Of a stretch of 64,000 nucleotides of DNA, positions 5,614 through 61,915 are shown piece by piece (the first letter of the stretch is position 1; every line of letters starts with the position of its first letter). The stretch is from contig WRIW01000005.1 of NCBI GenBank assembly GCA_009782505.1, forward strand, positions 7,044 through 71,043. Reading direction: 5' to 3'. Below the pieces are notes generated by a model, which was given only the letters and a program-made list of their open reading frames with translations, ran no database searches and was not told the DNA's origin. The position numbers and the translations under genes are program-made. This DNA is from Clostridiales bacterium. GTDB lineage: Bacteria; Bacillota; Peptococcia; DRI-13; UBA5745.

Positions 5614-6060
5614 ATGTGGACGAAATCAAACTCATTAATGCTATCGCGCATCATGATCGCCGTATTTCTCGCGCTGCTGGGGGCGGGCGCCCTGGGGCTG
5701 CCCTGGCTGCTGCGCTGGTATATCGGGTACGCGGGCAAGAGCGCGCTAGTCCTCCTGCCGGTCATGGCCAGCCTGTGGGCCTGCGCCCTGCCGGCCTTCG
5801 CCGCGCTGATCATGCTGGGCAAAATGCTGAAGAATATAGCCTTTGAGCGGGTATTTGTCCGGGAGAACGTCCGGGCGCTGCGGGTGATATCCTGGTGCTG
5901 CTTCGCCGTATCCGCCGTCTTCATCGTGTTTTTCTTCTATTATATATTGGGTATCATCCTGGCGATCCTTGCCGCTTTCGCCGGGTTGGTGCTGCGCGTA
6001 GTGAAAAATGTATTTGAACAGGCGGTAAAGCTCAAAGAAGAAAACGACCTGACCGTGTAA
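5614..6060 (+). CDS. DUF2975-like multi-pass membrane protein
   Basis: 148 aa with about four hydrophobic helices. It sits immediately upstream of a small YozG-like HTH gene, the usual DUF2975/HTH pairing. Confidence 0.7.
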   Translation: MWTKSNSLMLSRIMIAVFLALLGAGALGLPWLLRWYIGYAGKSALVLLPVMASLWACALPAFAALIMLGKMLKNIAFERVFVRENVRALRVISWCCFAVSAVFIVFFFYYILGIILAILAAFAGLVLRVVKNVFEQAVKLKEENDLTV

Positions 6061-6159
6061 TGTGGCGCTGGCTTAGTACTATTTAAGTAGTAGTCCGTAG
6101 TTGCCTGCCGGCGAAGCGCGCCGAGCGGCGGACAGGAGCGGAGAAGTATCCGCTATGAG

Positions 6160-6391: not shown

Positions 6392-7981
6392 ATGGAGAAT
6401 ATAACAACGACGCAGAAGCTTGTCAGGAAGCCGGCGGAGCCTAAGGCGCCGCCGCAGTACGACGGCGCCGATCTGATATTCGTATGCATCATCCCCGTAC
6501 TGGGCTTCCTATTTATCAAGCTGGTGGCTGCCTCGGCCCTGGCCCAGCCTTACCCGGGGGCGGGGGTGACGGCGTATACCTTGTGCTTCATCGCCGTTGT
6601 GCTTGCCTGGTTCCGAAGAAGCGGCGGGGCTGATCTCCGCGCCGCCTGGCCGGGTCTGGTCGCGATGCTGCTCACGGGGGGCTACTTCGCCATCTACCAA
6701 AACGCCGTGCTGGGGTATCTGGCGCTGCCCCTCCTCATCGGGACGGCGGCGTACACGGTCGTCGCTCTGGGCGGGCGGCGCGCCGGAAAAACCGGGGATG
6801 ATTATCTTGTATTTGACTTATACGGCGCGTTGTGCTCGATACCGTTTGGGAACTTCGGCAAGCTCTTTGCCATATGCGGGGACAGGCTGAAGAAGGTGAA
6901 GAAAAGCCGAAGCATATTGATGATGCTGCTGGGGGTAGTGGCGGCCTTGCCCGTAGCCATCTATGTGGGGACGCAGCTGCAAAGCGCGGACGCCGCCTTC
7001 GAGATGGTGTGGCAGAGCTTTGTCCGGCGATTCTTTTCCGACGACCTGCTGGTGACATTGCTTCAAATCGCTGTCTCCATACCGGTGGGCATGTACCTCT
7101 ACGGTCTGATTTACGGCTCGGTAAAGCATAGGGGGGAGCCGCATCTGAGTAGTGAGGAAGCCGCCGGGACGACGGATAAGGCGAAGATATTGCCTCTCTA
7201 CCTGGTCATCGGCGGTATCACGCCGCTGCTGGCCTTGTACCTTATGTTCTTCTTCTCCCAGACGGCGTACTTCCTTTCCGCCTTCCGGGGCATACTGCCC
7301 CTTGGATTGAACTACTCCGAATACGCGAGGAGGGGATTCTTTGAGCTATGCAATGTCTGTGTGATAAACCTGCTGGTGGCGGCGGTCCTCAACCTGCTTA
7401 CGAAGGACAGCAGAGCCGGAGCCGTTTCCCGGGTTTATGGCTGCCTGCTGGCCCTATCCTCCCTGGCCCTCATCGCTATATCCCTGAGCAAAATGCTGAT
7501 GTACATCAGCATCTACGGGCTGACGCCTCTGCGGGTGTATACGTCGTGGTTTATGGTATTCCTCTTCCTCCTGTTCGCCATGCTCATCGTGAGGTTATTT
7601 AAGCCGGGCTTCCCTTTCTTCAAGTACGGCGCCTGCTGCTGCCTAGCCATGTTCCTGCTGCTGGGGTACGCCGATACGGACAGGCTCATCGCGGAGTACA
7701 ACCTGGAGGCTTACCGAACGGGAAAGGTGGCTGGGCTGGACGTGGACCAGCTGCGGGAGCTGGGCGGCGGCGGGGTAGGCTGCTTACTTTCCATCGCGGC
7801 GGACGAAAGCATGCCGGAGGAGTACAAGCGCCAGGCAGGTCAAATCCTGTACGCCAAGGTGTGCGAAGCCGAGTGCCGCAAAGAGTACAAGCGGGACGAC
7901 TGGAGGGGCGCGTCCATCGCCGGATACCGGGAGCACAGACTACTTATGGAAAATAAGGACGTTATACTTAGGGCGAACTAA
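6392..7981 (+). CDS. DUF4153/DUF4173-like polytopic membrane protein
   Basis: Start at ATG 6392, after RBS GGGGAGG. About 530 aa with many TM helices. Completes the usual DUF2975-HTH-DUF4153 trio. Confidence 0.7.
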   Translation: MENITTTQKLVRKPAEPKAPPQYDGADLIFVCIIPVLGFLFIKLVAASALAQPYPGAGVTAYTLCFIAVVLAWFRRSGGADLRAAWPGLVAMLLTGGYFAIYQNAVLGYLALPLLIGTAAYTVVALGGRRAGKTGDDYLVFDLYGALCSIPFGNFGKLFAICGDRLKKVKKSRSILMMLLGVVAALPVAIYVGTQLQSADAAFEMVWQSFVRRFFSDDLLVTLLQIAVSIPVGMYLYGLIYGSVKHRGEPHLSSEEAAGTTDKAKILPLYLVIGGITPLLALYLMFFFSQTAYFLSAFRGILPLGLNYSEYARRGFFELCNVCVINLLVAAVLNLLTKDSRAGAVSRVYGCLLALSSLALIAISLSKMLMYISIYGLTPLRVYTSWFMVFLFLLFAMLIVRLFKPGFPFFKYGACCCLAMFLLLGYADTDRLIAEYNLEAYRTGKVAGLDVDQLRELGGGGVGCLLSIAADESMPEEYKRQAGQILYAKVCEAECRKEYKRDDWRGASIAGYREHRLLMENKDVILRAN

Positions 7982-7993
7982 AGACGCCTGTGC

Positions 7994-8250
7994 GCTACAG
8001 TTCAGGGGGTCAGGGGCCCAAAGCGTGGCTATTTGTAAGCGATGGATTGAACGGCTTCGTCTGCCAGATAAGCAATCGCAAACCTGGCAAATCCTTGGGT
8101 GCGACACGGACGTCGCACCAGACGGAACGCGACACGATGTCGCGTTGGAGTCGTTAGGGTTTGCATCAAACGATTGCTATATCTGGCCGAAGCTGTGAAT
8201 CATCGCGGCAAATAGCCACGCTTTGGGCCCCTGACCCCCTGAACTGTAGC
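7994..8250. repeat. long-stem hairpin element E1
   Basis: The arms are 42 bp and perfectly complementary. 7994-8035 (GCTACAGTTCAGGGGGTCAGGGGCCCAAAGCGTGGCTATTTG) is the exact reverse complement of 8209-8250. The interior continues as an imperfect palindrome. It contains hairpins at 8098-8119 (loop ACGGAC) and 8126-8146 (loop ACGAT). Confidence 0.9.
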
Positions 8251-8395
8251 TCTATTTTTTAAATTCACATATATTTTACATAAAAATGTTTCACTTTTGC
8301 GCGTTTCAGTGTATAATAAACTAAAAATGTGACCGAACGCGAAGGCGGCTCGCCAAGTGAAGTAGCGAGGCAGAGCAGCGAAAAGAGGGCGAAAC

Positions 8396-9640
8396 ATGGC
8401 AAATATTGCGGCAAAAAGCGATATCCCGGTCGCCGTAGAGAGCATAAGCGTCAGCATGTTTGGGGATTTCAAGCTCTTCGTGGGGGACCATGTCATCGAC
8501 GATAGGATAAGCCGCTCCCATAAGATGTGGGTACTGCTGGCTTACCTCATCATACACCGGAACCGCCATATCTCCCAGGAGGAGCTCATCGAGACCCTCT
8601 GGCCCGAGGAAGACAACGATAACCCGGCAAATGCCCTGAAGACCTTGCTCTACCGCACCAGGGCTTCCATCGCGGCGGTGCTGGGCGAGGAACCCCAGCT
8701 GATACTCTCCCAGCGGGGGTCATACTCCTGGAACCTGCAAATCGACTTGAAGGTGGACGCCGAGGAGTTCGACAGGCTCGTCTCCGTGGCCGCGGATATC
8801 AGCATAGACAGGCAGGTGCGCAAGGATCATTACCAAAGGGCAATGGAGCTGTACCAGCATGACTTCCTGCCCAAGCTCTCCGATCAGATGTGGGTCATAC
8901 CCTTTACCACGTATTACCACTACCTCTACCTGGATTCGGTCTTCGCCTGCGGCGACATGCTCCTTGAGGACGAGGAGTACGGCAAGCTTGCCGACTTGTG
9001 CAACCAGGCGGTGAGAATCGAGCCTTATGAGGAAAAGCTCTACATACTGCTCATCAAAGCCTTCCTGGCCCAGGGGAATACCATCGCCGCCGTGAGCCAG
9101 TACGAGAAAGCGACGGAGCTGCTCTACAAGAACTTGGGCGTCAAGCCTTCCGAGGCTCTGCGGGAGCTGTACCAGGAGATCATGAAGGAAAACAAACTCC
9201 TGGAGCTGGACCTCACCGTCATCCAGCAGGACCTCAGGGAAGCGGCCGAGCGGCCGGGCCCCTTCGTCTGCGAGTACGGCTTCTTCCGCGAAGCGTACCG
9301 GCTGGAGGCGAGGCGGGCGGCGCGCCAGGGCTCCAGCGTCCAAATCGCGCTGATCACGCTATCGTTGCCGGATGGCAAAAGCCCAACGCTGGCATTGCTG
9401 AATAAAACCATGGAGCAGGTGCTTAGCGTACTGGAGTACTGCCTGCGCAGGGGGGACGTAGTCTCCCGCTATAGCGGCGCCCAATTCGTCATCATGCTAC
9501 CCACGGCCAACTTTGAGGACGCCACGATGATATTGGATCGGATAGTCGCCATGTTCAACCAGAAGAACAGGAAATCATTCCTGATTTTAAATTATAAGAT
9601 TCAACAACTGGACTTGGATAAAATGAAGGCGTATAATTAA
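8396..9640 (+). CDS. SARP-like regulator (OmpR-type winged helix + BTAD) fused to a degenerate GGDEF-like domain
   Basis: The N-terminus FGDFKLFVGDHVI...WVLLAYLIIHRNRHISQEELIETLWPE...ALKTLLYRTR is a trans_reg_C/BTAD pattern. The TPR-like middle reads AMELYQHDFLP...YILLIKAFLAQGN. The C-terminus RRGDVVSRYSGAQFVIMLP aligns with R..D.vaRyGGDEFvill, but SGAQF replaces GGDEF. Confidence 0.8.
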   Translation: MANIAAKSDIPVAVESISVSMFGDFKLFVGDHVIDDRISRSHKMWVLLAYLIIHRNRHISQEELIETLWPEEDNDNPANALKTLLYRTRASIAAVLGEEPQLILSQRGSYSWNLQIDLKVDAEEFDRLVSVAADISIDRQVRKDHYQRAMELYQHDFLPKLSDQMWVIPFTTYYHYLYLDSVFACGDMLLEDEEYGKLADLCNQAVRIEPYEEKLYILLIKAFLAQGNTIAAVSQYEKATELLYKNLGVKPSEALRELYQEIMKENKLLELDLTVIQQDLREAAERPGPFVCEYGFFREAYRLEARRAARQGSSVQIALITLSLPDGKSPTLALLNKTMEQVLSVLEYCLRRGDVVSRYSGAQFVIMLPTANFEDATMILDRIVAMFNQKNRKSFLILNYKIQQLDLDKMKAYN

Positions 9641-10491
9641 TGGGAATTTATCATTCTTTCCAGGAAAGCAGGCTTGATAGACGAAAGAAAGAGAAACGTA
9701 GAAACATCATCATCACAACATATGTCCTGTTTGTCGCCGTCAGTATCGTCTCGATCATACAGTACAGGGCCTACCTCAGGGGCGAGGCGGAAAGCATGGC
9801 GGCGGCAGCTCTGTTGGCTCTGCCGGGGCCCGGGGGCAGAGAGGAGCCGGCGGTGATATGGCCGGATGAGCCGGCGGACACTCCGGCGGAAGGGTCAGAC
9901 GAGGCGCCCCCGGGGAACCAATCCACGGCGGAAGACGTCTATAAAGTGGAAGAGCCGCCCTACGACAAGCTTTTCATCACCGGGGAGAGGCGCCGCTACA
10001 AGGATCAGGATCTGACCCTCGTCATACCTAAGTTGAACAAGACGCTGCCCATATACAACGGCGTCACCCAGGAAGTATTGAAGAAAGGCGCGGGGCTGTA
10101 CGATTTCGCCCAGCTGCCCGGCGAGGGCAACCGAAACGTGAGCATAGCCGGCCACCGCAATACAAGCCGCTTCGGGGTGATCACCGACAACGCGCCGTTC
10201 TACTACATCGACAAACTGAAAGACGGTGATTATTTATACTTAACAGATGAGGAAAATGTTTACCGGTATCTCTATGAAGATACCAGGGTCGTCGAAGCCG
10301 ACGACTGGGGGCCCATCTACAGCCAGGGCTTTTCTTGCCTCACCATCACCTCCTGCACCCCCATCGGGATAGGGAGCCACAGGATAGTGGTAAGGGGCAG
10401 GCTGGATGAGATTTTTCCCCTGAGCGAGGGCTTTGAATACGTCCCGGAGACCGAGATCATGGAAGAGATCGTTGAGGATTTATTCCTATAA
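9640..10491 (+). CDS. sortase-family transpeptidase (class C/D-like), N-terminal membrane anchor
   Basis: Catalytic triad context NVSIAGHRN ... CLTITSCTPIGIGSHRIVVRGRL (His, TxxTC Cys, Arg). One N-terminal TM helix. Its ATG shares one nucleotide with the regulator stop (TAATG). Confidence 0.85.
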   Translation: MGIYHSFQESRLDRRKKEKRRNIIITTYVLFVAVSIVSIIQYRAYLRGEAESMAAAALLALPGPGGREEPAVIWPDEPADTPAEGSDEAPPGNQSTAEDVYKVEEPPYDKLFITGERRRYKDQDLTLVIPKLNKTLPIYNGVTQEVLKKGAGLYDFAQLPGEGNRNVSIAGHRNTSRFGVITDNAPFYYIDKLKDGDYLYLTDEENVYRYLYEDTRVVEADDWGPIYSQGFSCLTITSCTPIGIGSHRIVVRGRLDEIFPLSEGFEYVPETEIMEEIVEDLFL

Positions 10492-10509
10492 AGAATGGAG
10501 ATGATAACG

Positions 10510-11421
10510 ATGAAGAAAAAAACAAACCAATCCTTCCGGATGAGACTGACGGCTATCAGCTTGCTGCTGCTCTGCTTCACGGCGATGATCCCGGCCCCTG
10601 CCGCAGCCGCCATCGTCACCACGGTGGCGCAAAAGACGGGGGTGACCGTCCACAGCAATGACAAGGTCTCCATCGACGCGTCCAATCTGGCGGAAGGCTA
10701 TGTGATCGTAAAGTACACCGGGGGCAAGGACGTCCGGATAAAGGCGCAAATCGCCAAGACCGGCGGCTCCACCTACAGCTATGACATCAATTCCAAGGGA
10801 AACCCGGAGATACTGCCCATCACCGAGGGGGACGGGGCGTACTCCATAGGCGTATTCGAGAATGTCTCTGGCAGCAAGTATGCCCAGGCTTACGCGGCTA
10901 AGGTAGACGTCAAGCTGAGAGACCCCCTGCTGCCCTTCCTCTACGCCAACCAGTACGTGAACTACACGGCCGGCTCCGATGTGGACAAGAAGGCCCAGGA
11001 GCTGGTCAAAGGCGTCACCGACACGCTGGATAAGCTCACCAAGATCTATGATTTCGTCACAAGCACGCTGACTTACGACACGGTGCTGGCTGCCAACGTA
11101 CAGGCGGGCTATCTGCCCAATGTAAACGAAGTGCTGTCGAAGAAGAAGGGCATATGCTTTGACTACGCCGCCCTCATGTCATCCATGCTGCGGCTTCAGG
11201 GCATCCCATCCAGGCTTTGCATCGGATACGCCGGCACTGTGTATCACGCCTGGATAGACGTATACACCGAGGAAGCGGGCTGGATCAAGGAAGCGGTGAA
11301 GTTCGACGGGAAGAAATGGACCCTGATGGACCCCACATTTGTATCCACCTCCAACTCCGCCGACGCGGTGAAGAATTTCGTGGGCTCGGGCAATAGCTAC
11401 CAGCAAAAATATGTTTACTAG
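10510..11421 (+). CDS. secreted transglutaminase-like (Cys-His-Asp) protein
   Basis: Signal peptide MKKKTNQSFRMRLTAISLLLLCFTAMIPAPAAA. Transglutaminase core KKGICFDYAALMSSMLRLQGIPSRL..GY....HAW..V......W..MDPT. ATG 10510 follows GGAG; the track start 10495 is also possible. Confidence 0.8.
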   Translation: MKKKTNQSFRMRLTAISLLLLCFTAMIPAPAAAAIVTTVAQKTGVTVHSNDKVSIDASNLAEGYVIVKYTGGKDVRIKAQIAKTGGSTYSYDINSKGNPEILPITEGDGAYSIGVFENVSGSKYAQAYAAKVDVKLRDPLLPFLYANQYVNYTAGSDVDKKAQELVKGVTDTLDKLTKIYDFVTSTLTYDTVLAANVQAGYLPNVNEVLSKKKGICFDYAALMSSMLRLQGIPSRLCIGYAGTVYHAWIDVYTEEAGWIKEAVKFDGKKWTLMDPTFVSTSNSADAVKNFVGSGNSYQQKYVY

Positions 11422-11582
11422 TACCGCGTTGCATCTAAAAGTTAAGATTTATTTGCGAGGATATTCTTCGCAAGACAAGGCACGATGAGCGCGAATAGCC
11501 GCTGTGCTATTTAAGTGAAGAGTAACGCAGTATTGTGGAGAATAAACCGCAAATAAACTAACTTTTAGGTGCAACGTGGTAC
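11421..11582. repeat. long-stem hairpin element E2
   Basis: 11421-11457 pairs with 11548-11582 over about 35 bp, with two G-U pairs on the + strand and one 2-nt bulge. The left arm starts on the last base of the transglutaminase stop codon. The interior has hairpin 11493-11512 and the heptamer CACGATG that is also found in E1 and E3. Confidence 0.8.
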
Positions 11583-11613
11583 CTGATATATTTACTAAAA
11601 AAGGGGTTAGCGT

Positions 11614-12684
11614 ATGAGTACTGAGATCAAGACGAAGAAATCCGTCAGCCAGCTGAACGCTGAGGAGGTGTACCTTTTTTCGATGCAGATATCCCTGATG
11701 CTGAAGGCGGGCATCCTGCCCGCCGACGGCGTCGCCCTTCTGGAATCCGAAGCCGCCTCCGACCGGGAGAAAAAGCTTCTCAATCAGATGAAGGAGATAC
11801 TGGAGCAGGGCGAGCCCTTCTTCTCAGCGATGGAAGCCACGGGGGCTTTCCCCGAGCACGCCTTGCGCATGGTGCAGATCGGCGAAGACACGGGCCGCCT
11901 GGAGCAGGTGCTCGCCGCCCTTACGCTGCACTACCAGCAGGAGCATGAGCTCAGGGAAAACATGCGCCAGGCCGTGGTGTACCCCGCCTGGCTTGCCGTC
12001 ATCATCGGCATCGTGACCTTCGTGCTGGTCACCAGGGTGCTGCCCGTATTCCAGCAGGTGCTGGAGCAGCTTGGCTCCGGGCTCTCGCCCTGGGCTTCCT
12101 CCATCATGAAGATGGGCGTATTCACGAAGCAGGGGGCCATCGTATTCGCCGCTTTGCTCGCTGTATTTGCCCTGTATCTCTTCTTCAGCTCCCGCTCCCC
12201 CGAGGGGCAGGAAAAGCTAAGGCACCTGGCGGACATACTACTATTCCGCGGGGCGCTGGGGTTATCGGTATCTAGAGAAAGGTTTTCCTCCGCCATCTCC
12301 CTGAGCTTGGCCAGCGGCCTGAATCTCAACGACGCCATGGATAAGGCCATCTCCCTGGTAGACGACGATAAGATGCGCGTCAAGATCGAGCATTGCAAGG
12401 AGCTCCTGGAGCAGGGCACGACTTTTGCCGCCTCCGTGGAGCAGGCGGGCATATTCAACGGCCTGGAGATCGGTTTGATTTCCGCGGGCTTCAAAGCGGG
12501 CGCCAGCGAGGCGGTCATGCAGGAGCTGTCCAGGCGCTGCCACAATCAGACGGAAGAGATCATGTCCAAGATCATGTCCAGGATAGAGCCGATACTGGTC
12601 ATCTTCCTGGTGGTGGTTGTGGGGATGCTGCTTCTCTCCGTCATGCTGCCGCTCCTCGCCATGATGAACGCCATCGGCAGTTGA
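11614..12684 (+). CDS. type II secretion system F family / PilC-ComGB-like platform protein
   Basis: 356 aa with T2SSF-type repeats and three TM segments (LFSMQISLMLKAGILPADGV..., ...LISAGFKAGASE...EPILVIFLVVVVGMLLLSVMLPLL). Confidence 0.85.
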   Translation: MSTEIKTKKSVSQLNAEEVYLFSMQISLMLKAGILPADGVALLESEAASDREKKLLNQMKEILEQGEPFFSAMEATGAFPEHALRMVQIGEDTGRLEQVLAALTLHYQQEHELRENMRQAVVYPAWLAVIIGIVTFVLVTRVLPVFQQVLEQLGSGLSPWASSIMKMGVFTKQGAIVFAALLAVFALYLFFSSRSPEGQEKLRHLADILLFRGALGLSVSRERFSSAISLSLASGLNLNDAMDKAISLVDDDKMRVKIEHCKELLEQGTTFAASVEQAGIFNGLEIGLISAGFKAGASEAVMQELSRRCHNQTEEIMSKIMSRIEPILVIFLVVVVGMLLLSVMLPLLAMMNAIGS

Positions 12685-12733
12685 CAGGATGAGGCGGAGC
12701 CCATCTTGGATAGTTAGATATCGGAGGTAAGGT

Positions 12734-13054
12734 ATGTTCATCCGTAAGAAAGCTATGTCAAGAATCAAAGTGATCCTGCCGGTGATCCTCACGGCCATCG
12801 TCCTCTGGGGCGTCATGACCGGCGCGTCCAAGACCCAGGAGCAGGCGGCCGGGCAGGCGCAGAAGCTCACCGAGGAAAGCATACGCCGGGCGGCGGTCCA
12901 GTGCTACGCCCTGGAAGGCATCTATCCGGTGAATATCGAGTACCTCATGGACCACTACGGGATACGTCCCGATACGAACCGGTTTATCATTCATTATCAG
13001 TTTATCGCCGATAATCTTTTGCCGGATATCTCCGTGCTGCCCATCGAGCGATGA
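12734..13054 (+). CDS. small membrane-anchored pilin-like protein (GspG/ComGC-like globular part, no class III signal)
   Basis: RBS GGAGG. One N-terminal TM helix. IRRAAVQCYALEGIYPVNIEYLMDHYG resembles the major pseudopilin A..Y....G.YP..l..L signature. No G-F-T-L-x-E is present. Confidence 0.55.
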   Translation: MFIRKKAMSRIKVILPVILTAIVLWGVMTGASKTQEQAAGQAQKLTEESIRRAAVQCYALEGIYPVNIEYLMDHYGIRPDTNRFIIHYQFIADNLLPDISVLPIER

Positions 13055-13070
13055 CGAAGGGAGTGAGCCG

Positions 13071-13574
13071 ATGAACGGTGTGATAAAAGAAAGACAGGGG
13101 ATACGCGTAGACAGCGCCGGGGTGTTCTTATTGGGCGCCGTATTTCTTTTTTTATCCATCGGGCTGGTCATGATGGGCGGGTCCCTTTATCGCCATATCA
13201 TGGAAGTTTCAAACGAAAACGACGAAGCCAGGACGACGTTCTCCTACATCTCCAACCAGGTCCACCGGGCGGACGCCTCGGGGGGCGTGTCGGTAGGGGA
13301 GCTGGGGGGGCAGCCCGCCCTCCTGCTGGAGCAGCACTTCGGCGACTGGGAGTTCATCACCTACCTCTACTACTACGACGGCGCCCTCCGGGAACTCTTC
13401 GTCGAGAAGGGCACGGAGCTTGAGAAAGACGCCGGTCTGGCTATCGTCTGGCTAAGCGACCTGGGCTTTGAGCAGGACGAATCGGGCCTGATCACGGCTT
13501 GGGCCGTACTAACGAACGGGCGGAGGGAGCAGATATTGATTTCCCCGCGCACCATGGCAGAGGGGGTCGGCTGA
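13071..13574 (+). CDS. membrane-anchored protein, DUF4860/minor-pseudopilin-like
   Basis: 167 aa with one N-terminal TM (GVFLLGAVFLFLSIGLVMMGG). The soluble part (TTFSYISNQVHRAD...ITYLYYYDGALREL) resembles GspJ/ComGF-type minor pilins. The DUF4860 assignment is from memory. Confidence 0.5.
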   Translation: MNGVIKERQGIRVDSAGVFLLGAVFLFLSIGLVMMGGSLYRHIMEVSNENDEARTTFSYISNQVHRADASGGVSVGELGGQPALLLEQHFGDWEFITYLYYYDGALRELFVEKGTELEKDAGLAIVWLSDLGFEQDESGLITAWAVLTNGRREQILISPRTMAEGVG

Positions 13575-13999
13575 TGAAACGCCAACAATCCAGTTCCATC
13601 GTCTTCCTGACGGAGCTGTTCTTATCCCTGACGATATTTGCGTTATGCTCCTCCGTATGCGCGGGATTGTTTGCCTGGTCGTACCGCTACAGCAAGGACA
13701 GCAACGCCCTCAGCCGGGCCGTCATGGCTGCCCAGAGCTGCGCGGAAGCCTTCAAGAGGAACGATTCGGCACAGAGCCTGGCGGAGGCCCTGGGCGGTAC
13801 GGCGGGCGCCGGGAGCTGCCTGGTGTACTACGACGAAGACTGGACGCCTACCACCGCGGACCAGGCGTCTTTCATCCTCCGGGTGAGCATGAACCTGGAC
13901 ACGGGCATACGCCTGGCGGACATCGTCGTCTCCAACGCGGAAGACGCCGAAATCTTTAAGCTGGCTGCCTCGGCGCTCCTGACGGAGGTGAGGCCATGA
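13574..13999 (+). CDS. pseudopilin-like protein with out-of-register prepilin-like N-terminus
   Basis: Start at ATG 13574, overlapping the upstream stop (TGATG). The N-terminus MKRQQSSSIVFLTELFLSLTIF resembles a class III signal. However, it lacks Gly at -1 and the Glu is out of register. Confidence 0.55.
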   Translation: MKRQQSSSIVFLTELFLSLTIFALCSSVCAGLFAWSYRYSKDSNALSRAVMAAQSCAEAFKRNDSAQSLAEALGGTAGAGSCLVYYDEDWTPTTADQASFILRVSMNLDTGIRLADIVVSNAEDAEIFKLAASALLTEVRP

Positions 14000-14469
14000 G
14001 TGAGAAAAAAGGCAACCCCTTATACGGGATAGGCGGGGTGACCCTGCTGACTGTGCTCCTGGTGCTGTGCCTGACCTTGTTTTCCGTGCTGGCACTAAGC
14101 TCAGCCCAGGCGGATCGGCGCCTCAGCGAGAAAAGCGCCGCGTCGGTAACGGCTTACTATGAATCAGAAAATCAAATCCTGGAAATGATGAGGCAGATCG
14201 AGGGGATGTGGCCCGCGGGCCACAGGAGGCCCCAGGCCTCGGACATATCCGTCCGGCTCGCCTCCAAGTATGACGTATGGGTGGATACGGAGGGCGACGG
14301 CCTCATCATCTATACCGAGCTGCCCGTGATGGAGACCCAGACGCTGCAAGTCGAGGCCTACATCGGCCCCGGCGGCGACGGGGGGAGATGGGAAGTCCGC
14401 CAGTGGCAGCTCCTGCCCCCCGAGCAGGACGAAGGGGATATGGGCTTCCTCATCTTATGGGAGCCTTAA
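13996..14469 (+). CDS. pilin-like protein (E5-less minor pilin / PilX-ComGG-like)
   Basis: ATGA overlap with the upstream gene. The N-terminus ...GIGG|VTLLTVLLVLCLTLFSVLALS is followed by SAQADRRLSEKSAASVTAYYESENQ. Confidence 0.5.
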   Translation: MSEKKGNPLYGIGGVTLLTVLLVLCLTLFSVLALSSAQADRRLSEKSAASVTAYYESENQILEMMRQIEGMWPAGHRRPQASDISVRLASKYDVWVDTEGDGLIIYTELPVMETQTLQVEAYIGPGGDGGRWEVRQWQLLPPEQDEGDMGFLILWEP

Positions 14470-14526
14470 GCATACATATCTTCCAGGCTTAGGATTTGAA
14501 TTTCATAAAAGGAGCATAGGATAATT

Positions 14527-15594
14527 ATGGAAGTCACTGATATTCTCTCGAAAGCAATAGAGCACCAGGCGTCGGATATCCTGTTGATATCCGGCTTGCC
14601 CATTACGTTTAAAGGCAACGGCAAGATCATCCGCCTTGAAGGCGAGAGGCTGCTGCCGGAGAGCTGCGGCGATCTCATCGCGGAAATCTACAAGCTGGCG
14701 GGTAACCGGGACATGGAGACCATCCTGAAGGACGGGGACGACGACTTCTCCTTCTCCTTGCCGCAGCTGTGCCGGTTCCGGGTGAATACCCTCAGGCAGA
14801 GGGGCTCCCTGGCCGCCGTCATCCGGGTGGTATCCTTCGATATGCCGGACCACACGGAGCTGCAGATACCCGACGCGGTGATGAATTTCGCCAACTATAC
14901 GAAGGGCATGGTGCTGGTCACAGGCCCTGCCGGCAGCGGCAAATCCACGACCCTGGCCTGCCTGATCAACGAGATCAACCACAATAGGGACGCCCATATC
15001 ATCACCATCGAGGACCCCATCGAGTTCCTCCACCGCCACGACAAGAGCGTGGTGACCCAAAGGGAGCTCTCCAGCGACACCAGGAGCTATGAGGCGGCGC
15101 TGAGGGCGGTGCTGCGCCAGGCGCCGGACGTGATACTGCTGGGGGAGATGCGCGACTTCGAGACCATCAAGACGGCCATCACCGCCGCGGAGACCGGCCA
15201 TCTGGTGATATCCACCCTGCATACCATAGGCGCGGCGAACACCATCGACCGTATGGTGGACAGCTTCCCCCCGGAGCAGCAGCAGCAGATACGTATCCAG
15301 CTGGGCATGGTCCTCCAGGGGGTCGTATCCCAACAGCTGGTGCCGGCGCTGAACGGAAAGGTTTTACCCGCCTTCGAGGTCATGATCGCCAACAACGCCA
15401 TTCGGAACCTCATCCGCGAGTCCAAGGCCCATCAGATCGACAGCGTGATCTTTTCCTCCGCTTCCGAGGGTATGATCAGCATGGACACTTACTTGCTCAA
15501 CATGGTCAGGGATAAAAAGATATCCCCGGAGGAAGCGGTGAACTACAGCACCAACGGCGACCAGATGGTGAAGCGGCTTCAGGCGATGAAGTAG
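14527..15594 (+). CDS. pilT: PilT-family type IV pilus retraction-type ATPase
   Basis: 355 aa. Walker A GPAGSGKSTT; IITIEDPIEF; LRQAPDVILLGEMRD; AETGHLVISTLHT; AIRNLIRE. Size and motifs match PilT/PilU rather than the longer PilB/GspE type. Confidence 0.9.
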   Translation: MEVTDILSKAIEHQASDILLISGLPITFKGNGKIIRLEGERLLPESCGDLIAEIYKLAGNRDMETILKDGDDDFSFSLPQLCRFRVNTLRQRGSLAAVIRVVSFDMPDHTELQIPDAVMNFANYTKGMVLVTGPAGSGKSTTLACLINEINHNRDAHIITIEDPIEFLHRHDKSVVTQRELSSDTRSYEAALRAVLRQAPDVILLGEMRDFETIKTAITAAETGHLVISTLHTIGAANTIDRMVDSFPPEQQQQIRIQLGMVLQGVVSQQLVPALNGKVLPAFEVMIANNAIRNLIRESKAHQIDSVIFSSASEGMISMDTYLLNMVRDKKISPEEAVNYSTNGDQMVKRLQAMK

Positions 15595-15604
15595 GCGGTA
15601 TCCC

Positions 15605-16075
15605 ATGAGCCATGAAAAAGGCGCAAAACTCAATCATTACATGGCTTTCCTGCGGGTAGCCGTAGACGGATACGAGGCCGGGCGGATCTCCGGGAGCGTA
15701 TATAGCCGGCGGCTTAAGGCGCCCCTGCATTTTGCCACGACGAAAGACCTCCTGCTTCAGATAGAAGACCTGCTGGATACCCAGGATTTCCCCCGGGCAT
15801 TCCAGCGGAAGAGGACCTTCGCGGAGGGCAAGGCCCCGAAAGCCCCGGGGAGGCCCGTGGCGCCGGAAGAGGACGGCAGGGAAAACATGGACGCGGAGAC
15901 GGTGGATATGGCCCGGGGGAAGATCTCCACTTTCACGCTGAATGTGATCACCCGCCAGAATACATCTTGGCAGGGGTACCTGGACTGGCTGGACGGGGCG
16001 GACAGGCTGGCGTTTAACAGCGACTTGGAGCTTCTGTCCATGATTTCGGAGAGGCTGGAGCTTAGCGGGGGCTGA
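15605..16075 (+). CDS. hypothetical protein, last gene of the filament-like operon
   Basis: 156 aa with no TM helix. The C-terminal motif STFTLNVITRQNTSWQGYLDWLDG...FNSDLELLSMI is recalled from other small Clostridia proteins of unknown function. Confidence 0.5.
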   Translation: MSHEKGAKLNHYMAFLRVAVDGYEAGRISGSVYSRRLKAPLHFATTKDLLLQIEDLLDTQDFPRAFQRKRTFAEGKAPKAPGRPVAPEEDGRENMDAETVDMARGKISTFTLNVITRQNTSWQGYLDWLDGADRLAFNSDLELLSMISERLELSGG

Positions 16076-16104
16076 GCGCGCACTGATACTGTTCACTGAT
16101 TGCG

Positions 16105-16128
16105 GACGCCGGCGGACGGCGTCTTTTT
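16105..16128 (+). terminator. Rho-independent terminator of the filament-like operon
   Basis: Stem GACGCC / GGCGTC (16105-16110 / 16118-16123) with loop GGCGGAC, followed by TTTTT. Confidence 0.75.
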
Positions 16129-16151
16129 CTACGGCGCGGCGGCGGTCTGTA

Positions 16152-16380
16152 GCCGCCTGGTGGCAAGGCAACGCCCGATAGGGCGACATTGCGGCGTAGA
16201 TACGTAGACACGAATCAGGCATGCAGGCGGAGACATAGAAAAATCAGGACGATTTTTCAGGCGGAGGCCGACACGATGTCGGCTCGACGCCGGTATGTCG
16301 GAGCAAATCATGGCGATAAGGTGTTTCTTCGTTATATATAGCAGGAGCCCTATCAGGCGTTGCCTTGCCGCCGGGCCGTC
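16152..16380. repeat. long-stem hairpin element E3
   Basis: Core arms 16162-16184 and 16347-16369 are complementary at 22 of 23 positions, with about 7 more pairs outward. The interior holds hairpins 16238-16258 (loop AGGAC), 16267-16283 (loop ACGAT) and 16282-16304. Confidence 0.8.
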
Positions 16381-61832: not shown

Positions 61833-61915
61833 TGCCCGAGAAGGGACTTGAACCCCCACATGGTTACCCATAGTAGATTTTGAGTCTACCGCGTCTGCCA
61901 TTCCGCCACTCGGGC
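61833..61915 (-). tRNA. tRNA-Leu (anticodon CAA)
   Basis: The reverse complement is GCCCGAGTGGCGGAATGGCAGACGCGGTAGACTCAAAATCTACTATGGGTAACCATGTGGGGGTTCAAGTCCCTTCTCGGGCA. It has a 7-bp acceptor stem, anticodon loop CUCAAAA, a long variable arm and a TTCAAGT T-loop. No CCA is encoded. A terminator hairpin lies at 61807-61830. Confidence 0.88.

Follow-up and report, generated by a model that had tools for sequence, protein, structure and literature searches.

The locus analysed here raised the question of what is represented by a 257-nt palindromic element, designated E1, which occupies the gap between a DUF4153 gene and the gene for a SARP/BTAD regulator. E1 lies at positions 7994-8250 of a 64-kb stretch of DNA, hereafter the window. 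Its outer arms (7994-8035 and 8209-8250) were 42 nt each and 100% complementary, with 173 nt between them; the arm sequence was unique in the 64-kb window and had no match in 100 shuffles. When the 257 nt were folded as RNA, a single rod of -184.7 kcal/mol was predicted (z = -21). The parts of E1 and the promoter that follows it are listed below.

7994-8036, + strand: outer left arm, 5' half of the closing helix (distal P1), with copy-specific sequence
8039-8078, + strand: inner P1, 5' strand, with a sequence kept between copies
8044-8203, + strand: full-length match to RF01731 TwoAYGGAY by the Rfam covariance model, taking in inner P1, three-way junction, and two hairpins
8087-8164, + strand: three-way-junction head, closed by a 9-bp stem (8087-8095 / 8156-8164)
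8098-8119, + strand: hairpin 1, GGTGCGAC-ACGGAC-GTCGCACC, with loop ACGGAC at 8106-8111, GGA present
8126-8146, + strand: hairpin 2, AACGCGACA-CGA-TGTCGCGTT, with loop A-CGA-U (8134-8138), without GGA
8171-8206, + strand: inner P1, 3' strand, from the predicted fold and the copy alignment
8208-8250, + strand: outer right arm, 3' half of the closing helix, identical to the right arm in L001 (see below)
8290-8317, + strand: sigma-70-like promoter of the SARP/BTAD regulator gene, TTCACT-16-TATAAT, outside E1 and kept in relatives that have no E1

As listed above, the closing helix was perfect over 43 bp (7994-8036 / 8208-8250). The inner P1 consisted of five helices of 6, 3, 9, 8, and 8 bp (8039-8044, 8046-8048, 8051-8059, 8063-8070, and 8071-8078), and the whole P1 amounted to approximately 77 bp, that is, the 43-bp perfect helix plus 34 further pairs. 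Model R1 scored 103 bits on the head at 8087-8164. The upstream DUF4153 ORF has its stop at 7981, and E1 begins 13 nt later. No intrinsic terminator was called at E1 by the terminator scan, and a consensus scan detected no promoter-like site in or just before it. The first-pass annotation of this DNA had described the exact 42-nt arms, an imperfect pairing of the next ~40 nt on each side, two central hairpins, a start 13 nt past the upstream stop, and a non-coding element far larger than a terminator. All of these points were borne out, the two hairpins in the predicted fold.

E1 was also traced in two assemblies other than that of the window. L135 covers the left arm and the interior with 99.98% identity, and L001 covers the interior and the right arm. 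Since both arms were found in other assemblies, the palindrome is not an assembly artefact of the window. The orientation of E1 was the same in all three assemblies.

A search with the Rfam covariance models assigned E1 to TwoAYGGAY (RF01731). The match scored 50.4 bits, where the gathering score is 43, and extended over model positions 1-168 of 168. The first loop, ACGGAC, fits AYGGAY, and sister copies carry AUGGAC; the second loop, ACGAU, has one G fewer and fails AYGGAY, and the same loop is present in E3, a second element of the window. The large closing P1 of TwoAYGGAY is found in E1, and so is a covariation-backed structure, with double changes in 21 of 87 pairs. E1 is a new, slightly variant TwoAYGGAY member, which has every architectural feature of the family except the second AYGGAY loop. 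It shares with TwoAYGGAY the three-way junction, the two adjacent hairpins, the very long P1, the many copies per genome, the Clostridia or gut-type source, and the AYGGAY first loop. It differs in the second loop, where GGA is reduced to GA, and in a P1 that runs ~45 bp past the Rfam model as a perfect helix. The hint at TwoAYGGAY in the first-pass annotation, together with its reading of the two loops, was thus confirmed. The same annotation had named a clean match to a known RNA family as a refutation; with the match to RF01731, most of the novelty falls away.

TwoAYGGAY was named for its two AYGGAY loops and was graded as a probable RNA, neither cis-regulatory nor riboswitch, with a range that covers human gut, Clostridiales, and gamma-proteobacteria (Weinberg et al. 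2010, PMC2864571). Its closing stem was described as "often very large", for example 24 bp with 2 mismatches (supplement of Weinberg et al. 2010, PMC2864571). The discoverers' alignment (PMC2864571) contains many copies from a single Psychromonas genome, and their gut-metagenome members (PMC2864571) are ~440-nt palindromic units on different contigs, whose flanks diverge sharply. Since a giant stem and many copies are already evident in the discoverers' material, both are known traits of TwoAYGGAY. The motif has been an orphan since 2010: CsrA sequestration, proposed in the RMfam paper, is the only hypothesis on its function, and literature searches on the function of TwoAYGGAY or Bacillaceae-1 found no experimental work.

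A 24-nt string, CAGRCGGANNNCGACACGATGTCG, was common to E1 and E3 (chance expectation, 0.02 matches), and metagenome contigs were scanned with it for a census of copies. Since the pattern demanded hairpin 2, the conservation of this hairpin among the copies found is ascertained, not observed. The scan yielded six real copies, namely, L125, L127, L128 (two), L132, and L129; 8 of 13 matches fell by chance in coding sequence from high-GC organisms and were dropped. Five unrelated loci with E1-type copies were found in one sample, and the sixth (L129) came from another sample (JGI), which also holds the organism of the window at 99.9% (L136). Four of the six copies (L132, both in L128, and L127) passed the Rfam threshold at 43.4-47.3 bits, and the L001 copy reached 47.3 bits. 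The copy at L125 4750-4929 and L129 315-494 had ACGAU in both loops, zero GGA, and a near-perfect long stem, and in both sequences it scored below the Rfam gathering score. Since this copy and E3 were undetected at the Rfam threshold, the current RF01731 model misses part of the family.

The E1-type copies were located at unrelated loci, each abutting a stop codon. E1 and E3 were co-oriented with their neighbouring genes, the L125 and L127 copies were antisense to both neighbours, and the L128a and L132 copies lay between convergent genes. The sister copies had no T-runs. The flanks of the copies showed no RAYT, TnpA, or other recombinase beside any of them, and neither a transposase, nor a target-site duplication, nor sharply defined conserved termini were found for E1-type copies. 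No clear direct repeat was seen at the E1 and E3 junctions or in a filled/empty comparison, in which divergence blurs the junctions. The terminus TACAGTYCA was common to three copies only, and GCUACAG/CUGUAGC was moderately enriched in the published TwoAYGGAY alignment file. A scan of viral contigs with a 21-base core returned nothing. The inner-arm sequence GTAAGCG resembles what we take to be IS66-type ends; this idea was dropped, because the sequence is not kept among copies. The pattern CGGANNNCGACACGATGTCG, applied to genome contigs, was too unspecific (at least 120 matches, mostly by chance in high-GC genomes). Among the matches listed were group II introns (L017, L092) and Bacillaceae-1 (L114, L117), and the species of the window was not among them. 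The first-pass annotation had held that many identical copies with target-site duplications would make E1 an ordinary MITE/REPIN. Multiple copies with presence/absence were indeed found; however, since the copies are non-identical and target-site duplications are not visible, E1 is not an 'ordinary MITE/REPIN'.

The conservation of the structure was assessed in an alignment of eight copies by RNAalifold, with the structure predicted on the + strand. Among these copies, which share ancestry, 87 pairs were predicted, and 21 of them showed compensatory double changes. When the structure was held fixed, 97.4% of the cells were paired, compared with 32-38% when the partners were slid. The 21 double-change pairs exceeded the 10.4 +/- 2.0 obtained after shuffling, where none of 500 shuffles reached 21, and the slid controls gave 2-5. 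In hairpin 1, other copies carried a compensatory change from U-A to C-G in the stem, and the loop was ACGGAC or AUGGAC. The mean pairwise identity was ~90% in the interior and ~61% in the outer arms, and the arms were nevertheless still complementary within each copy. The ~170-nt interior is a three-way junction with two hairpins on a long inner P1, and its sequence is kept between copies. The outer arms are an extension of P1, free to drift in sequence, while their two halves still match each other, with no preference for either strand.

The imperfect pairs distinguished the two parts further. Read on the + strand, the core and inner P1 contained 24 G.U, 0 A.C, and 3 other imperfect pairs, whereas the outer arms contained 8 G.U, 5 A.C, and 5 others and showed no strand bias. 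The G.U cells of the core were spread over about ten columns, in which they alternated with Watson-Crick pairs. Although the structure was one predicted on the + strand and the copies have a common ancestry, the helices are continuous, and any A.C cells would have entered the count. Therefore, the 24 G.U against 0 A.C in the interior point to a strand-specific, single-stranded fold of the + strand; G.T wobbles in a single-stranded DNA fold would fit 24:0 equally. In this alignment, the constraint on the interior is that of one strand, the one read by the Rfam model, be it RNA or, in principle, single-stranded DNA.

The locus was then compared with those of related genomes. The regulator (window 8396-10491) has Trans_reg_C and BTAD domains and a weak GGDEF-like C-terminal region. 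Orthologues at 90, 79, 76, and 69% identity were found in syntenic pilus-like operons, which encode transglutaminase-like, T2SS-F, DUF4860, pilin-sized, and T2SS-E proteins. The relatives that bear these orthologues are named Clostridiales or 'Peptococcaceae' MAGs, and Oscillospiraceae genera follow at ~53%. In the window and in the 90% relatives, but not in the 69-79% relatives (L139-L141), a sortase gene follows the regulator.

The relatives with 69-90% regulators have the same operon without E1, E2, or E3 (E2 being a third palindromic element of the window), and their spacers are too short to hold them. The DUF4153-to-regulator spacer is 100 nt in L139 and 134 nt in L140. In L142, a 90% relative, the slot of E1 upstream of the regulator is 185 nt, that of E2 is 32 nt, and that of E3 is 195 nt. 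Neither an E1/E3-type core nor a TwoAYGGAY match was detected at the syntenic loci of these relatives. Furthermore, the regulator promoter region of the 90% relative is conserved up to the right edge of E1. Since this conservation extends to the edge in a genome that lacks E1, the T-run after E1 is ancestral promoter-upstream sequence, not a terminator tail. The E3 site has orthologous flanks on either side: in the relative, a canonical terminator is followed by 19 nt and the conserved downstream promoter, whereas in the window ~250 nt including E3 lie between terminator and promoter. Therefore, the short spacers and conserved flanks identify E1 and E3 as lineage-specific additions in terminator-promoter gaps. 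The E1 copy was either gained in this lineage alone, or every relative sampled has lost it. The structure is conserved across copies, with strong covariation, but not at the orthologous locus of related genomes. Its lack there speaks against a regulator dedicated to the SARP/pilus operon, and for the pilus operon itself E1 is probably incidental.

Two other inserts were seen in the relatives. In the 90% relative, the DUF4153-regulator interval (L137 4120-9816, L142 3577-9272) holds five genes, for AAA_35, a biotin-lipoyl carrier, an HMGL-like/PYC_OADA carboxyltransferase, a biotin carboxylase, and a 4HBT thioesterase, where the window has E1 alone. The right junction of this five-gene block (L137 9839-9880) weakly resembles the left arm of another copy, 'X', which is described below (0 of 300 shuffles reached the score), and the same segment is also the plain stem of a small terminator hairpin. 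It may be a weak hint of an element remnant, with loss rather than gain at that site. In the 79% relative, the E2 slot (L139 12208-12442) holds a different 234-nt insert, in which hairpins, GTCGCATCTGGATGCGAC among them, lie between two ~42-nt direct repeats (ATGGGGCGCCGCCCCATGTAGAATGAATCTAGGATATGTAGA and a variant).

Apart from E1, E2, and E3, the 64-kb window contained no long spaced inverted repeats. E2 and E3 are listed below.

11421-11582, + strand: E2, a long quasi-palindrome of another dispersed family, not TwoAYGGAY
16155-16376, + strand: E3, a diverged E1 paralogue with 30-nt arms, 90% complementary

The first-pass annotation had regarded both E2 and E3 as architecturally related to E1; this holds for E3, which has the core in common, but not for E2, which belongs to a different family. 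The hairpins of E3 are AAAAATC-AGGAC-GATTTTT and GCCGAC-ACGAT-GTCGGC, with a single loop GGA, and the hairpin 2 sequence of E1 is identical in E3. No Rfam match of E3 was obtained even at E<=5; a tRNA gene at 61833-61915 (- strand) was the sole other Rfam match of the window that reached its gathering score. E3 is situated at the far end of the operon, 3' of the upstream gene's own terminator and 5' of the next promoter. Behind a canonical terminator and with no promoter in sight, it may be hardly transcribed, and if so, selfish DNA would account for it better than an RNA function of any kind. E2 folded as a 173-nt quasi-palindrome (z = -10.9). Its candidacy as a third family member was rejected, because the two-hairpin core is missing, neither R1 nor Rfam gave a match, and E2 has relatives of its own. 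These occur at unrelated loci (L001 2603-2756 and L128 6064-6226) with ~76% identity, and among the three copies 14 of 61 predicted pairs were compensatory, with a conserved apical GACAAGGCACGAUGAG. E2 is a second dispersed palindromic family, which is not homologous to E1/E3. All three elements, from two families, lie in or flank one 8.4-kb regulator-sortase-pilus operon (7994-16376).

Sequence mosaics were found at the borders of two copies. In the alignment of L001 9599-9855 with window 7994-8250, the E1 interior and right arm were joined to another left arm, which is off that of E1 at ~8 of 42 positions and in addition has CCGTGGG for CCTTGGG; the upstream gene there encodes an aldo-keto reductase. 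L135, from the same ENA sample as L001, is arranged as in the window, and the contig breaks off within the element (5892-6085). L001 is therefore either a genuine product of recombination between two copies or a misassembly caused by the repeat; in both cases, it shows that the community contains a further copy, 'X'. The other case concerns L129 1-2098 and L125 4436-6526, which are orthologous. They were 100% identical over L129 1-500, that is, the 3' end of a gene plus the element, and the identity fell to 72-90% exactly at the element edge, which made a second mosaic boundary at an element border. This boundary came either from recombination or from assembly switching.

On these results, we consider it likely that E1 belongs, as one of several copies, to a family of dispersed palindromic repeats centred on the catalogued TwoAYGGAY motif. 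The family would spread as a non-autonomous, selfish-type element into 'safe' terminator-promoter gaps. Read-through from the upstream gene would produce a double-stranded RNA rod of ~77 bp in either orientation, which should act as an RNase III substrate and as a barrier to 3' exonucleases. The strand-specific head may be a putative protein-binding module or may be needed for the element's own propagation. The complementarity of the arms is probably restored at the DNA level, through quasi-palindrome template switching or arm-to-arm conversion. Quasi-palindrome template switching is established in E. coli; likewise, the long hairpins of Correia elements are RNase III substrates, and REP and ERIC hairpins alter mRNA stability.

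Known repeats of this kind provide the closest parallels. Correia/NEMIS of Neisseria, ERIC/IRU, REP/BIME, and BOX are 100-300 bp in length, form long hairpins, and are co-transcribed with their neighbours. Like E1, they are intergenic imperfect palindromes at gene ends in either orientation, and their presence or absence varies between close relatives, as in the E1 family. They differ from E1, which has zero sequence similarity to them and a head under strand-specific structural constraint. MITEs are also multi-copy, with presence/absence between relatives; however, MITE-type elements conserve their terminal inverted repeats, whereas the E1 family has a conserved centre and drifting termini (arms 61% between copies against 90% for the interior) and so fails the test of conserved terminal inverted repeats. 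In comparison with REPIN/REP-RAYT systems, REP units at the ends are not conserved in the E1 family, and no HUH gene was seen beside the copies.

Several other explanations were weighed against the dispersed repeat. E1 could be a cis-acting 3'-end element of the upstream gene, selected by the host as an oversized bidirectional terminator, an insulator, or an mRNA-stabilising hairpin. It does fill the slot between stop codon and promoter, other copies sit likewise or between convergent genes, the rod forms in both orientations, and a T-run follows E1. However, this T-run is ancestral and also present in relatives without E1, other copies have none, and the terminator scan found no terminator. 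Moreover, E3 already follows a canonical terminator, relatives manage without the element, and the 90% interior conservation and the strand-specific head would be left unexplained. We therefore regard a host-selected 3'-end element as unlikely. The published TwoAYGGAY hypothesis, by which E1 would encode a small RNA titrating CsrA via the GGA motifs of its loops, appears quite improbable to us, although several observations speak for it. Hairpin 1 (GACACGGACGUC) resembles RUACARGGAUGU, which we take to be a high-affinity CsrA SELEX ligand, and TwoAYGGAY is filed in Rfam clan CL00106, presumably the Csr/Rsm clan. The fold is strand specific, and as in CsrB/RsmZ-type sRNAs, a GGA is present in a hairpin loop with SELEX-like flanks, in multiple copies. 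The proposal for the family in the RMfam paper also counts in its favour. Against these points, each RNA would offer 1-2 sites, far below known sponges; compared with CsrB/RsmZ-type sRNAs, there are one or zero GGA loops, the consensus scan showed no promoter or terminator of its own, the module is buried in a ~77-bp rod, and copies sit at gene ends in any orientation, some of them antisense to both neighbours. CsrA sequestration is weakened above all by the GA in place of GGA in hairpin 2 of E1 and E3, the L125/L129 copy that keeps a near-perfect fold without any loop GGA, the lack of a promoter in or just upstream of E1 in the scan, and the position of E3 behind a terminator. What matters most in the motif is probably neither GGA nor, by extension, CsrA. 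No match to csrA or fliW was obtained in ~250 kb of related sequence, an amount that is uninformative for whole genomes.

Another explanation moves the function to DNA: single-stranded DNA would be the functional form, and the hairpins of the head would be recognised by an HUH-type or other recombinase in the style of REP/REPIN-RAYT or IS200/IS605. DNA hairpins tolerate G.T wobbles, so that the 24:0 ratio fits, the outer arms are constrained symmetrically as expected at the DNA level, the copies are dispersed and lineage specific, and the sequence mosaics start at the element edges in two comparisons. Nevertheless, no RAYT, TnpA, or other recombinase was seen beside any copy, no target-site duplication is visible, the conserved centre with variable ends is the opposite of REP/MITE logic, and the discoverers graded the motif as a probable RNA; we hold this possibility, too, to be quite improbable. 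The perfect 42-bp inverted repeats around 173 bp, just upstream of a surface-structure operon, might also suggest an invertible DNA switch (inverton) for phase variation of the pilus/sortase operon. This is extremely improbable, because the interior is itself palindromic and has no promoter-like site, the operon promoter lies outside E1 and is kept in relatives lacking E1, homologous copies adjoin unrelated genes and even sit between convergent ones, the flanks show no recombinase gene, and one orientation was seen in all three assemblies. The inverton reading was rejected, along with the coding-ORF and plain-terminator readings, on the basis of the ORF list, the promoter/terminator scan, and the comparison with relatives.

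A further-reaching form of the dispersed-repeat explanation was also considered, namely, that TwoAYGGAY is an active non-autonomous mobile element, that its head and not its termini is recognised, that the partner is not CsrA, and that the operon has recruited the insertions at its boundaries. We put this forward tentatively, as a speculation with a small chance of being right. Propagation would proceed via a single-stranded RNA or DNA intermediate recognised by the head, and since ACGAU can replace GGA loops, the partner would not be CsrA. Terminator-promoter gaps would be targeted, and the insertions there would give rise to long rods of double-stranded RNA and to boundaries of recombination or mosaicism. 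The three palindromic insertions in one pilus/sortase operon, if independent, would represent recruitment for operon boundaries or processing.

In our view, the evidence speaks for a motif that forms the core of a dispersed palindromic repeat and against one that serves as a dedicated regulator. What is new here is the embedding of this core in a dispersed palindromic repeat with copy-specific arms, the natural filled and empty sites, and the occurrence of TwoAYGGAY copies as lineage-specific insertions in terminator-promoter gaps. The strand call, the GGA-less copies, and a possible link with Bacillaceae-1, read on its reverse strand, are new as well. Such repeats also have a practical consequence, in that they fragment metagenome assemblies and may give rise to chimeric contigs.

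The possible link concerns the reverse strand of Bacillaceae-1 RNA (RF01690), which has the same two loop types as E1 and E3 in the opposite order. On the strand opposite to the RF01690 match, L114 7059-7110 (also L117) reads GCGAC-ACGAT-GTCGGTC ... GTCGC-AAGGAC-GCGAC. Bacillaceae-1 differs from E1 in its length of ~67 nt, its missing long P1, and its Bacillaceae lineage. Given the loop types in common, one binding partner may recognise both E1/E3 and this strand of Bacillaceae-1.
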